Source of the DNA: Escherichia coli
GTDB taxonomy: Bacteria; Pseudomonadota; Gammaproteobacteria; Enterobacterales; Enterobacteriaceae
Direction: 5' to 3' (one strand)
DNA: 64,000 nucleotides
Assembly: GCF_003334335.1 (NCBI RefSeq)
Contig: NZ_QOWQ01000028.1
The first letter of the stretch is position 1. Every line of letters begins with the position of its first letter. Positions 51,001-57,000 of this stretch are shown one piece after another. Made by a program: the position numbers.

Positions 51001-54000
51001 CTGCCAGAGTTCGCCGACTATAACCAGCGCATCCGTCATCCCGGTGGTTTTCACCTGATAAATGCAGCTGCTGAAAGGCGCTGGATGACGCCGTCAGGTA
51101 AGGCTAATTTCATTACCAGCAAAGGGCTGTTAGAAGATCCCTCTTCAGCGTTTAACAGTAAGCTGGTCATGGCGACAGTACGCAGCCACGATCAGTACAA
51201 CACGACGATTTATGGTATGGATGATCGCTATCGAGGGGTATTCGGTCAACGAGATGTGGTCTTTATGAGTGCTAAACAAGCTAAAATTTGCCGTGTAAAA
51301 AACGGCGAAAGAGTTAATCTTATTGCGCTTACGCCAGACGGTAAGCGCAGCTCACGCCGCATGGATAGATTAAAAGTGGTCATTTACCCTATGGCTGACC
51401 GCTCACTGGTGACCTATTTTCCAGAATCGAATCACATGCTAACACTTGATAACCACGATCCATTAAGTGGCATTCCTGGCTATAAAAGTATTCCGGTTGA
51501 ATTAGAACCATCAAATTAATGCCTCTTCTCATTTCTTCTGCTGTCATCCGCACAGCAGAAGAATTCCTCATTGACTATTATTTCGCAATTTGCTCACATG
51601 GATTAAATTAAACTACATACTATAAGATATAAACTTCTGCCTACAGCTGTAAGAAACTCCGCTCAGTACTGAAGCACCAGTCCTATTTCCTCTTTTCTCC
51701 AGCCTGTTATATTAAGCATACTGATTAACGATTTTTAACGTTATCCGCTAAATAAACATATTTGAAATGCATGCGACCACAGTGAAAAACAAAATCACGC
51801 AAAGAGACAACTATAAAGAAATCATGTCTGCAATTGTGGTTGTCTTATTACTGACACTTACGTTGATAGCCATTTTTTCGGCAATTGATCAGCTGAGTAT
51901 TTCAGAAATGGGTCGCATTGCAAGAGATCTTACACATTTCATTATCAATAGTTTGCAAGGCTGAAAACAAACAGCAAATTATAAATATGAAATGTTAAAA
52001 AAGTATCGATAAAAACTTTATTGTTTTAAGGAGATAAAATGTCGCTCGTTTGTTCTGTTATATTTATTCATCATGCCTTCAACGCTAACATTTTAGATAA
52101 AGATTACGCCTTCTCTGACGGCGAGATCCTGATGGTAGATAACGCTGTTCGTACGCATTTTGAACCTTATGAGCGGCATTTTAAAGAGATCGGATTTACT
52201 GAAAATACCATTAAAAAATATCTACAATGCACTAACATCCAGACAGTGACGGTGCCTGTTCCTGCGAAGTTTTTACGTGCTTCAAATGTACCGACTGGAT
52301 TGCTTAATGAAATGATTGCTTATCTCAACTCGGAAGAACGCAATCATCATAATTTTTCAGAACTTTTGCTTTTTTCTTGCCTGTCTATTTTTGCCGCATG
52401 CAAAGGTTTCATTACACTATTAACTAACGGTGTGCTATCCGTTTCTGGGAAAGTGAGAAATATTGTCAACATGAAGCTGGCGCACCCATGGAAGCTGAAA
52501 GATATTTGTGACTGCCTGTACATCAGTGAAAGCCTGTTGAAGAAAAAACTTAAGCAAGAGCAAACGACATTCTCACAGATTCTTTTAGATGCAAGAATGC
52601 AGCACGCAAAAAATTTGATACGCGTAGAAGGTTCAGTCAATAAAATTGCCGAACAATGTGGTTATGCCAGTACATCTTATTTTATTTATGCGTTCCGCAA
52701 ACATTTCGGCAACAGTCCGAAGAGAGTTTCTAAGGAGTACCGTTGTCAAAGTCACACGGGTATGAATACGGGCAACACGATGAATGCTTTAGCTATTTGA
52801 TTATTTGCTAACGAGTAGTCAACCACACACGCTGCGTAAGAATTAAATGGGGCAGCCATTCCCTGCCCCGCGTTGTTTTTAGGCGATATATTTATTGAAA
52901 TAAATAAGTGACATCCATCACATATTTATGCACTTGCATAACCTGTTGCATGATTATTTATGATCTCAATTCTGCATTTTGTCAGTAAAATGCAATAATT
53001 TATTAAATATCAATAAATTAGTTGTTTATCGGCGAGAAATTACTTAATAGAACAGAAAGTAATGTCAACGCTTTATGGACTGTTTTTTCCCTTTTTTTAG
53101 CTAAATCTGCTATCTCTTTATGTGACTAACTTCACTTACATCCACTTATTTCTCTTCGTAAAATTACTTTGGAATTAAGTACAATAAGAAGAGGAACATT
53201 TATGAAGTCTGCATTAAAGAAAAGTGTCGTAAGTACCTCGATATCTTTGATACTGGCATCTGGTATGGCTGCATTTGCTGCTCATGCGGCAGATGATGTA
53301 AAGCTGAAAGCAACCAAAACAAACGTTGCTTTCTCAGACTTTACGCCGACAGAATACAGTACCAAAGGAAAGCCAAATATTATCGTACTGACCATGGATG
53401 ATCTTGGTTATGGACAACTTCCTTTTGATAAGGGATCTTTTGACCCAAAAACAATGGAAAATCGTGAAGTTGTCGATACCTACAAAATAGGGATAGATAA
53501 AGCCATTGAAGCTGCACAAAAATCAACGCCGACGCTCCTTTCATTAATGGATGAAGGCGTACGTTTTACTAACGGCTATGTGGCACACGGTGTTTCCGGC
53601 CCCTCCCGCGCCGCAATAATGACCGGTCGAGCTCCCGCCCGCTTTGGTGTCTATTCCAATACCGATGCTCAGGATGGTATTCCGCTAACAGAAACTTTCT
53701 TGCCTGAATTATTCCAGAATCATGGTTATTACACTGCAGCAGTAGGTAAATGGCACTTGTCAAAAATCAGTAATGTGCCGGTACCGGAAGATAAACAAAC
53801 GCGTGACTATCATGACAACTTCACCACATTTTCTGCGGAAGAATGGCAACCTCAAAACCGTGGCTTTGATTACTTTATGGGATTCCACGCTGCAGGAACG
53901 GCATATTACAACTCCCCTTCACTGTTCAAAAATCGTGAACGTGTCCCCGCAAAAGGTTATATCAGCGATCAGTTAACCGATGAGGCAATTGGCGTTGTTG

Positions 54001-57000
54001 ATCGTGCCAAAACACTTGACCAGCCTTTTATGCTTTACCTGGCTTATAATGCTCCGCACCTGCCAAATGATAATCCTGCACCGGATCAATATCAGAAGCA
54101 ATTTAATACCGGTAGTCAAACAGCAGATAACTACTACGCTTCCGTTTATTCTGTTGATCAGGGTGTAAAACGCATTCTCGAACAACTGAAGAAAAACGGA
54201 CAGTATGACAATACAATTATTCTCTTTACCTCCGATAATGGTGCGGTTATCGATGGTCCTCTGCCGCTGAACGGGGCGCAAAAAGGCTATAAGAGTCAGA
54301 CCTATCCTGGCGGTACTCACACCCCAATGTTTATGTGGTGGAAAGGAAAACTTCAACCCGGTAATTATGACAAGCTGATTTCCGCAATGGATTTCTACCC
54401 GACAGCTCTTGATGCAGCCGATATCAGCATTCCAAAAGACCTTAAGCTGGATGGCGTTTCCTTGCTGCCCTGGTTGCAAGATAAGAAACAAGGCGAGCCA
54501 CATAAAAATCTGACCTGGATAACCTCTTATTCTCACTGGTTTGACGAGGAAAATATTCCATTCTGGGATAATTACCACAAATTTGTTCGCCATCAGTCAG
54601 ACGATTACCCGCATAACCCCAACACTGAGGACTTAAGCCAATTCTCTTATACGGTGAGAAATAACGATTATTCGCTTGTCTATACAGTAGAAAACAATCA
54701 GTTAGGTCTCTACAAACTGACGGATCTACAGCAAAAAGATAACCTTGCCGCCGCCAATCCGCAGGTCGTTAAAGAGATGCAAGGCGTGGTAAGAGAGTTT
54801 ATCGACAGCAGCCAGCCACCGCTTAGCGAGGTAAATCAGGAGAAGTTTAACAATATCAAGAAAGCACTAAGCGAAGCGAAATAACTAAACCTTCATGCGG
54901 CGGATTTTTCCGCCGCCTTATTGAGCGAGATAGCGATGCACGTTACAGCCAAGCCCTCCAGTTTTCAATGTAATCTCAAATGTGATTACTGTTTTTACCT
55001 TGAAAAAGAGTCGCAGTTTACTCATGAAAAATGGATGGATGACAGCACTCTGAAAGAGTTCATCAAACAATATATCGCAGCGTCTGGCAATCAGGTCTAT
55101 TTTACCTGGCAAGGCGGTGAACCCACTCTGGCTGGCCTGGATTTTTTCCGTAAAGTTATTCACTATCAACAACGCTATGCAGGCCAAAAACGTATTTTTA
55201 ATGCATTACAAACGAATGGCATTTTATTGAATAATGAATGGTGTGCCTTTCTCAAAGAACATGAATTTCTGGTTGGTATCTCGATCGATGGCCCCCAGGA
55301 GTTACATGACCGTTACAGACGCAGTAATTCAGGTAACGGTACTTTTGCAAAAGTGATAGCAGCCATCGAGCGTCTGAAATCATATCAAGTAGAGTTTAAT
55401 ACGTTAACCGTCATTAATAACGTTAATGTCCATTACCCTCTTGAGGTTTATCATTTTTTAAAATCTATCGGCAGTAAACATATGCAATTTATCGAATTGC
55501 TAGAAACCGGGACGCCGAATATTGATTTCAGTGGTCATAGTGAGAACACATTCCGTATCATTGATTTTTCTGTGCCTCCCACGGCTTATGGCAAGTTTAT
55601 GTCAACCATTTTTATGCAATGGGTTAAAAACGATGTGGGTGAAATTTTCATCCGTCAGTTTGAAAGCTTTGTCAGCCGTTTTTTGGGGAATGGGCATACC
55701 AGTTGTATTTTCCAGGAGTCCTGCAAGGATAATCTGGTTGTTGAAAGTAATGGAGACATTTACGAATGCGACCATTTTGTCTATCCACAGTACAAAATTG
55801 GAAACATTAATAAATCTGAACTCAAAACGATGAACAGTGTACAACTGACAGCGCAAAAAAAACGGATTCCAGCGAAATGTCAGCAATGTGCATATAAACC
55901 TATCTGCAATGGCGGTTGTCCTAAGCATCGTATTACTAAAGTAAACAATGAGACTGTTTCTTATTTTTGCGAAGGTTATAAAATCCTTTTTTCAACCATG
56001 GTACCTTATATGAACGCCATGGTAGAGTTAGCTAAGAACAGAGTACCGCTTTACCACATTATGGATGTTGCAAAACAAATGGAGAATAATTAATAACGCT
56101 CTCTTTTAACTCCATTCTTAGCCTCCTTCTTATGACCTTAACAAGGCACCCGACATAAATTCCTGTCGGGTGTTTCGTCATCATCATCTTCCCTTGCGAA
56201 AATCCTGGCTTACGTGGTATGCATCAGGGCATTAGCAATATCCTTGATTATCAATAGCATAACCATAACCACTGAAAATGAAATATTCCTTTATATTTCA
56301 TATTGTTAAATGATACTTAAATAAATTTCATCAGTAAATCATTGCCATAGATAATCATTGGATGGCACAATCAATTTTCGCTAATGATAACCATTCCCAT
56401 TACGCTTCGTATGTTGATAGCAAAGTATCTCTGTCTGTTGAAGCCCTTTTGGCTGCGTAAGAATAATAAAACTTCAGTGTTGTTAATCATTATTATCCTC
56501 GCCATGATCCTTGGCGTGGTTAAAATTCAGGTCTGGTTAAACGACTGGAATAATGATTTTTTCAATGCGCTAAGCCAGAAAGAAACCGATAAGCTTTGGC
56601 AGCTTGTCCTTTGGTTCCCTGCCCTGCTGGGGATCTTTGTATTAATATCCGTAAACAAAACATGGTTAATTAAACTACTGACTATTCGCTGGCGCGAATG
56701 GTTAACAGATTACTACCTTAATCGGTGGTTTGCAGATAAAAACTACTACTTCACGCAGATCTACGGCGAGCATAAAAATACAGATAACCCTGACCAACGT
56801 ATCGCTGAAGACATTCTCTTACTGATCAGCAAAACGCTCAGTCTTTCATTTGGCTTCATCCAGTCACTTAGCATGCTGATCACCTTTACCGTTATTCTTT
56901 GGGAAAGCGCGGGTACGCTCTCATTCACTGTTGGTGGAACAGAATGGAATATCCAGGGGTATATGGTCTATACCGTCGTGCTCATTGTGATCGGTGGAAC

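Follow-up and report, generated by a model that had tools for sequence, protein, structure and literature searches.

The ydeN-ydeM gene pair of Escherichia coli: a predicted Ser-type sulfatase, its putative anaerobic maturase and a conserved hairpin between their genes

Two adjacent genes of Escherichia coli, ydeN and ydeM, raise the question of whether the product of the second matures the sulfatase encoded by the first without oxygen, and of what part is played by the hairpin in the 51-nucleotide (nt) spacer between them. We analyzed this locus in a stretch of 64,000 nt from contig NZ_QOWQ01000028.1 (assembly GCF_003334335.1), here referred to as the window, which as a whole is K-12-like and extends from the end of the Qin prophage to pqqL, taking in marRAB, lsr and hipBA on the way. 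Flanked by ydeO and yddA, both genes lie on the + strand and match the annotated ydeN and ydeM at 100%. The open reading frame (ORF) of ydeN occupies positions 53202–54884, with 560 amino acids counted from its ATG, and would encode a Ser-type sulfatase precursor of family S1. The ORF of ydeM occupies 54936–56093 (385 amino acids) and encodes a homologue of the anaerobic sulfatase-maturating enzymes (anSMEs), which are of the radical S-adenosylmethionine (radical-SAM)/SPASM type. A TTG start for ydeM at 54921 (390 amino acids), present in a mechanical ORF list, was rejected, since all orthologues start at an ATG-CAT/CAC aligned with 54936. RefSeq names the two products "sulfatase-like hydrolase/transferase" and "anaerobic sulfatase maturase". 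We consider it likely that ydeN and ydeM form a two-gene operon, at the same time a horizontally mobile cassette, in which YdeM matures the exported YdeN and a leaky hairpin limits the message for the maturase.

That ydeN is a sulfatase gene and ydeM a maturase gene is the long-standing standard annotation and was already known. The pairing was reportedly recognised by computation by Schirmer and Kolter in 1998 and revisited by Berteau and Benjdia. The E. coli sulfatases are among the better-known K-12 enzymes that lack an assigned substrate, and the present results leave the accepted picture unchanged. A 2021 paper still lists AslB and YdeM as "putative" anSMEs and calls maturation in E. coli "not completely understood". 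What we add is modest, namely a conserved, covarying hairpin between the cistrons and the strict synteny of the cassette, which make the question of expression directly testable.

We first consider YdeN. The Pfam Sulfatase domain (PF00884) is matched at 1e-70 by residues 58–408 and is covered in full length (model positions 1–301 of 301). The sulfatase signature SGPSRAAIMTGR, read directly as S132-G-P-S-R136-AAIMTGR at residues 132–143 (nt 53595–53630, +), agrees with the pattern (C/S)-x-(P/A)-x-R and then xxx-[LM]-TG-R, and it is Ser132 that should be converted to formylglycine. Among the listed homologues, all 118 where the motif was found read SGPSR, with Ser and never Cys at the formylglycine position. 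Moreover, an alignment of 12 orthologues with 70–84% identity shows no variation at D66, D67, S132, R136, K183, H185, H286, D345, N346 and K364, and we take the metal-binding and catalytic roles of such residues (Asp-Asp, Arg, Lys-x-His, His, Asp-Asn and Lys) from the numbering of arylsulfatase A. A Sec signal peptide is predicted at residues 1–29 (nt 53202–53288, +) from a hydropathy window and, by inspection, from the –3/–1 rule. Its positively charged N-region, hydrophobic core (residues 8–27) and A-H-A before A30 were judged by eye, and inspection of the N-terminus revealed neither a twin-arginine motif nor a lipobox Cys. These features point to export of YdeN to the periplasm via Sec. By inspection, YdeN thus combines the Ser at the formylglycine position and the N-terminal export signal by which Ser-type periplasmic sulfatases are recognised, and it would be a formylglycine-dependent enzyme with sulfatase activity. 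We also observed that the 560 residues of YdeN include no cysteine, and the same is true of 9 of 11 aligned orthologues.

The features of YdeM are those of a maturase. TIGR03942, "anaerobic sulfatase maturase", is the only model that it passes, end to end and with 505.5 bits against a cut-off of 349.45, and its Pfam domains are Radical_SAM and SPASM. The best match in the PDB is the anSME of Clostridium perfringens (anSMEcpe, 4K36; the solved structures are 4K36–4K39) at 6e-63, with 34.7% identity over 346 aligned residues, while the next radical-SAM enzyme follows at 2.6e-19. The CX3CX2C cluster motif of YdeM, C12-NLK-C16-DY-C19 (54969–54992, +), aligns to C15/C19/C22 of anSMEcpe, and the SPASM region (55704–55970, +) contributes the eight cysteines of the auxiliary clusters together with D279. 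In the cluster numbering of PMC5682303, C257/263/278/328 align to C255/261/276/330 (Aux I) and C315/318/324/345 to C317/320/326/348 (Aux II), so that all 11 Fe-S cluster cysteines of 4K36 have counterparts in YdeM. D279 aligns to D277, and counterparts of Y24 and of the QGGE motif, with its GGE, are also kept. There are two differences: the cognate sulfatase of anSMEcpe is Cys-type whereas the partner of YdeM is Ser-type, and YdeM lacks four non-ligand Cys of anSMEcpe. The assignment of YdeM as the oxygen-independent anaerobic maturase of YdeN is supported by this alignment, and the peptide considered as its substrate for formylglycine formation is YVAHGVSGPSRAAIMTGR. In some E. coli, ydeM is split by an insertion sequence (IS) and ydeN is intact (by IS1A in strain 167, by IS2 in strain GPEC484-624; NZ_CM132968.1, NZ_CM142767.1), which indicates that some lineages tolerate losing the maturase.

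We next asked whether the two genes are coupled. One genome per species was scanned, giving 27 loci, and a locus was counted if its orthologue was complete, with an identity of 68% or more, and the DNA downstream of it was long enough. In 24 of 24 orthologous loci so counted, from more than 15 species, a same-strand maturase gene came directly downstream of the sulfatase gene; the genera are Escherichia, Citrobacter, Leminorella, Budvicia, Cedecea, Mixta, Yersinia, Aeromonas, Grimontia, Anaerobiospirillum and Iodobacter. Yersinia pestis, Aeromonas veronii, Iodobacter ciconiae and an Anaerobiospirillum-like gut organism all have the sulfatase gene followed by a radical-SAM gene of 387–391 codons, and the flanking genes of these four loci are unrelated to each other, with IS elements alongside in Aeromonas. 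Such strict adjacency across unrelated flanks means that ydeN-ydeM behaves as a mobile two-gene cassette, and the two genes travel together across at least four orders of Proteobacteria. The first-pass annotation of this DNA had put the pair at 53202–56093, exactly the outer coordinates of the ORF list. It had also claimed a signature with Ser at the position to be converted, which is indeed present, and a CX3CX2C motif with further Cys clusters in YdeM, which the alignment to 4K36 bears out; the pairing of a Ser-type sulfatase with a maturase that it drew from them is supported by the adjacency and by the score for TIGR03942. A further contig, JARKOR010000108.1, is binned as "Candidatus Nanosynbacter sp.", and its ydeN and ydeM products have 100% and 99% amino acid identity to those of E. 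coli; it is almost certainly E. coli DNA mis-binned into a metagenome-assembled genome.

The closest known system is AtsA/AtsB of Klebsiella pneumoniae, in which a radical-SAM maturase forms the formylglycine of a Ser-type periplasmic arylsulfatase independently of oxygen. YdeN/YdeM resembles it in the Ser of the (C/S)xPxR signature, the signal peptide and the adjacent gene for a cytoplasmic three-cluster radical-SAM maturase. In Klebsiella atsB precedes atsA, whereas in ydeN-ydeM the sulfatase gene comes first and a hairpin lies between the genes; furthermore, YdeN scores below the arylsulfatase equivalog, and YdeN and YdeM are known here from their sequences. E. coli K-12 has two more loci with the same enzyme families, aslA/aslB and yidJ/yidF, both outside the window. 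Schirmer and Kolter (1998) and Benjdia et al. (2007) reportedly treat them together with ydeN/ydeM. Their sulfatases are Cys-type, and their genes are not known to lie in the order sulfatase, hairpin, maturase. Deletions of aslB and ydeM reportedly have no effect on Cys-type maturation.

The substrate of YdeN was approached through its solved relatives. The best matches are enzymes of SulfAtlas subfamily S1_19, the endo/exo 4-O-sulfate carrageenan sulfatases (9HH2, 6B0J, 6BIA and 6PSM in the PDB), with E-values of 2.3e-52 when the sequence is used singly and 1.8e-61 when the family profile is used, and with 37.5% identity over 320 residues. The solved S1_19 relatives remove 4-O-sulfate from galactose in carrageenans. 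This match is stronger than that to the N-acetylglucosamine (GlcNAc)-6-sulfatase BT4656 (5G2V, 6e-30), with which a 2024 paper compared YdeN (PMC10878103); according to that paper, no substrate of YdeN has been reported. Compared with S1_19, about 25 residues are added in YdeN on the way from the DDLGYG metal site to the signature, and its C-terminal region is longer; at the signature it shares SGPSR with 9HH2, whereas 9HH3 has the Cys-type CGPSR. The S1_19 similarity rests on these best PDB matches, at an identity of only 37.5%, and is a lead on the substrate and not an assignment. The YdeN cassette also differs from S1_19 in that, at the four orthologous loci examined, its neighbours include neither glycoside hydrolases nor genes for sugar transport. 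No glycan-utilisation genes were found in the flanks of these four loci, and since the flanks also differ, the neighbours permit no inference about the substrate.

We further focused on the spacer between the two genes, which contains the stem-loop GCGGCGGA-UUUU-UCCGCCGC followed by the tail CUUAUUGA (54897–54916, +). The stem has 8 pairs, 7 of them G-C, the energy of the stem-loop is –16.2 kcal/mol, and the element lies 12 nt past the stop codon of ydeN and 19 nt ahead of the ATG of ydeM. A hairpin had been noticed here before at 54897–54922; it is present, and its end had been set 6 nt too far, into the tail. The fold of the 51-nt spacer has z = –3.0 to –3.4 against dinucleotide shuffles and is the most stable per nucleotide among the 16 same-strand spacers in the window. 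Across species, all 16 distinct spacers tested fold better than their own dinucleotide shuffles (z from –2.3 to –4.6). In 13 short in-register orthologous spacers, a 10-pair helix has 92.9% of its cells paired, compared with 40–70% when the 3' arm is slid; double compensatory changes occur at 10 of 10 helix pairs, and none of 500 shuffles reaches the observed covariation score. The identical helix was obtained independently by RNAalifold. On the sense strand there are 7 G-U wobble cells against 1 A-C cell, which favours a structure of the sense RNA over one of the antisense strand or of DNA. The hairpin itself is under selection, and its position is conserved in all cassettes. In 11 of the 13 short spacers it starts 5–19 nt past the stop codon of the sulfatase gene. 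In most spacers, several long ones of Anaerobiospirillum and Grimontia among them, 12–23 nt lie between its end and the maturase ATG, and this gap leaves room for a ribosome-binding site alone and none for a promoter. Tails are U-rich; strict terminator criteria, with at least 5 U in the 8 positions directly after the stem, hold in 9 of 24 spacers, and several others have the U-run inside an A/U-extended stem. The hairpin is thus conserved and terminator-like, and in E. coli it is no canonical intrinsic terminator. A scan of 52700–56500 against Rfam gave no RNA family, the only match being one of chance level to isrK on the minus strand (20 against 50 bits, E = 0.26). In Y. pestis, an upstream hairpin, GCCGCC-AAA-GGCGGC, that would compete with the main stem as a possible antiterminator was rejected as chance, as it is not conserved even in Y. 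similis.

A weak candidate sigma-70 promoter of ydeN, CTTACA-18-TAAAAT (53135–53164, +), was found by a consensus scan with 9 of 12 matches; the region has no more promoter-like sites than its shuffles. The same scan found no promoter-like site on the + strand at 53165–55531. A scan for AraC half-sites upstream of ydeN was uninformative (44 matches against 50 by chance, none of them in the ydeN promoter region). In the literature, AraC binds upstream of ydeN in an arabinose-dependent manner (PMC3738151), GadX binds there and represses (PMC4918353), and ydeM is co-transcribed with ydeN and follows the AraC-dependent regulation at the ydeN promoter, which implies read-through of the hairpin (PMC10878103). 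The doubt that had been raised about coupled expression on account of the hairpin is thereby narrowed, since the element is terminator-like yet non-canonical and, judging from the reported regulation, is read through. Together with the lack of a promoter-like site up to 55531, the co-regulation suggests that the ydeM message comes from read-through of the hairpin.

One alternative is that the hairpin has no role in the ydeN:ydeM ratio and is either a full terminator, with a ydeM promoter inside ydeN, or a neutral structure. Comparable hairpins do stand between independent same-strand transcription units in the window, and the Anaerobiospirillum spacers, at 100–520 nt, could hold promoters. The short distance from hairpin to ATG in most spacers, the empty promoter scan and the reported dependence of ydeM on the ydeN promoter (PMC10878103) all speak against a separate promoter, and the compensatory changes argue against neutrality, so that we regard this alternative as unlikely. 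The hairpin is probably a leaky terminator or a messenger RNA (mRNA) stabiliser that keeps the maturase below the sulfatase. It shares with attenuating terminators and stabilising hairpins inside operons the GC-rich stem-loop, the U-rich tail, and two co-regulated genes of which the downstream one depends on read-through; it differs from attenuating terminators in that the E. coli hairpin has no proper U-tract and its effect on the ydeN:ydeM ratio is a proposal.

We propose the following course of events for the operon. Transcription would start upstream of ydeN under the control of AraC and GadX, and the stem-loop on the sense RNA would act as a leaky terminator, as a barrier to 3'-exonucleases that protects the ydeN segment, or as both. 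The ydeM message, made solely by read-through, would stay below that of ydeN, and the catalytic maturase would be scarcer than its substrate. YdeN would be made as a precursor with its Sec signal peptide. By analogy with the anSME family, the SAM-binding [4Fe-4S] cluster of YdeM would enable abstraction of a C-beta hydrogen from Ser132 of the unfolded cytoplasmic YdeN, and an electron would leave via both auxiliary [4Fe-4S] clusters to give C-alpha-formylglycine without oxygen. The matured YdeN would then be exported and hydrolyse sulfate esters in the periplasm, in a reaction that depends on formylglycine and on metal. The hairpin offers a concrete and cheap experiment on the sulfatase:maturase ratio, as well as a warning to those who clone ydeNM for co-expression.

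A more ambitious version, which we put forward tentatively and consider doubtful, makes the stem-loop a dedicated control element. As the hairpin begins so close behind the stop codon, a ribosome terminating on ydeN could mask the 5' arm and suppress termination, coupling read-through to ydeN translation, and the maturase would be made only during translation of the sulfatase. The cassette would then let gut Gammaproteobacteria desulfate a host- or diet-derived compound anaerobically, possibly a 4-O-sulfated galactose or N-acetylgalactosamine (GalNAc) glycan.

The pair could also have no role in present-day E. coli and be a cryptic remnant that is in effect silent. Foreign Ser-type sulfatases are said to stay unmatured in E. 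coli unless AtsB is added. Furthermore, no phenotype or substrate of ydeNM is reported in the literature, and a ydeN knockout leaves azo-dye depletion unaffected (PMC10653809). However, selection within Escherichia is clearly and strongly purifying for both genes, which argues against a decaying cryptic locus: for ydeN the ratio of nonsynonymous to synonymous substitution rates (dN/dS) is 0.020 in the comparison with E. albertii and 0.040 in that with another Escherichia lineage, and for ydeM it is 0.044 and 0.064. This places both genes within 0.02–0.06, and as a protein YdeM evolves at about double the rate of YdeN. Of 5426 complete E. coli genomes, 5382 (99%) have the pair according to a megablast with its 3.4-kb stretch, mostly at 95–100% identity; the catalytic residues are conserved, and so is the hairpin, with its compensatory changes. 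Transcription also responds to mouse-gut conditions (PMC10878103) and to the sulfonated dye FD&C Red 40, by which ydeN was the only gene induced in a 2023 paper that found no role for it in dye reduction (PMC10653809). A silent remnant is therefore improbable.

Another possibility concerns the reaction, as YdeN could be a formylglycine-dependent hydrolase of something other than sulfate, such as a phosphonate monoester or phosphodiester, or a transferase with the sulfatase fold. It bears the Prokaryotic Genome Annotation Pipeline (PGAP) name "sulfatase-like hydrolase/transferase", it matches PehA, the Phosphodiest family, LtaS and YejM weakly, and SulfAtlas family S1 includes formylglycine-dependent phosphonate monoester hydrolases (PMC5066984). 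YdeN also passes no curated sulfatase equivalog: it reaches 124 against 481 bits for NF010322 (arylsulfatase) and 97 against 433 bits for TIGR03417 (choline-sulfatase), is a member of neither, and should for this reason not be named an arylsulfatase or a choline sulfatase. Against this, the 48 strongest PDB matches to the YdeN family profile are sulfatases or carry sulfatase-type names, headed by the S1_19 carbohydrate sulfatases; YdeN has the full S1 signature and catalytic set; and transferases of the LtaS and EptA types rely on Thr and do without a maturase. We hold a non-sulfate activity to be very improbable. As for YdeM, that it is a peptide-modifying radical-SAM/SPASM enzyme, forming cyclophanes or thioethers on some other substrate in the manner of DynA, DarE or YhhB and being no more than a neighbour of ydeN, is extremely improbable, for although the SPASM fold is common to many peptide maturases and YdeM matches models of maturases of peptides that are made by the ribosome and modified after translation (RiPPs), all of these matches are below cut-off (DynA 218 against 450, DarW 164 against 650 and YhhB 153 against 445 bits), TIGR03942 is passed, anSME is by far the better PDB match, a Ser-type sulfatase gene adjoins in 24 of 24 loci, and the 51-nt spacer holds no small precursor-peptide gene.

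Several points weigh against maturation of YdeN by YdeM under a leaky hairpin. According to Benjdia et al. (2007) and earlier work on Klebsiella AtsA/AtsB, laboratory E. coli reportedly requires heterologous AtsB for a foreign Ser-type sulfatase, and the chromosomal ydeM would then be silent or insufficient under those conditions. YdeN lies below the cut-off of every curated NCBIfam sulfatase equivalog (124 against 481 bits at best), and its RefSeq label goes no further than "sulfatase-like". In the literature, we found no report of formylglycine in YdeN or of sulfate-ester hydrolysis by it, and no experiment showing SAM cleavage by YdeM. As for the hairpin, the E. coli tail CUUAUUGA has 4 T in 8 and fails the U-tract criterion, and the element was not called by the terminator scan; termination there may be weak or absent. 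Stable hairpins (z at or below –2.6) are moreover present in six others of the 16 same-strand spacers in the window. We read these six as terminators between transcription units, so the ydeN-ydeM element is of a common kind.

Some E. coli have a second YdeN-like Ser-type sulfatase of 565 amino acids with 77–78% identity, in a cluster of about 300 sequences. In E. coli GCA_014543985.1 its gene (6001–7698 of locus L006) directly follows a porin gene, near another sulfatase gene and a gene for an AraC-family regulator, and it has a strong hairpin at its 3' side and no maturase gene in the 480 nt up to the contig end. The databases also hold proteins of 742–878 amino acids, mostly from single assemblies, in which YdeN is fused to YdeO-, YdeP- or fimbrial-type domains (P0001–P0003, P0008 and P0013 in our set); we judged them to be artefacts of gene calling or assembly and not real fusions.

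The probable end of the ydeNM transcript is the stem-loop CACCCGACA-N8-UGUCGGGUG followed by UUUCGUC (56147–56172, +), with a fold z of –3.56 and no shuffle of 200 folding as well, which the strict terminator scan did not call. It is contained in a 40-codon ORF on the minus strand (56059–56181), named "protein YneP" in RefSeq, which is antisense to the last 35 nt of ydeM and overlaps them. On the other side of the pair, a strong GC hairpin just past ydeO (52848–52870), with T-runs on both strands, was called as a terminator in either orientation and stands between ydeO and the promoter region of ydeN. Elsewhere in the window, the matching RefSeq record gives as pseudogenes or truncated genes ydfJ, dgcF, a frameshifted autotransporter of the ECSE_1600 family and ydeT (3441–4724, 23833–24819, 37640–43061 and 45647–46873). 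Finally, some 35 kb away from ydeNM lies ydeA (17508–18698, –), annotated as an L-arabinose transporter of the major facilitator superfamily (MFS). As AraC binds the ydeNM promoter only when arabinose is present, one neighbourhood holds two arabinose-linked functions outside the ara operons.

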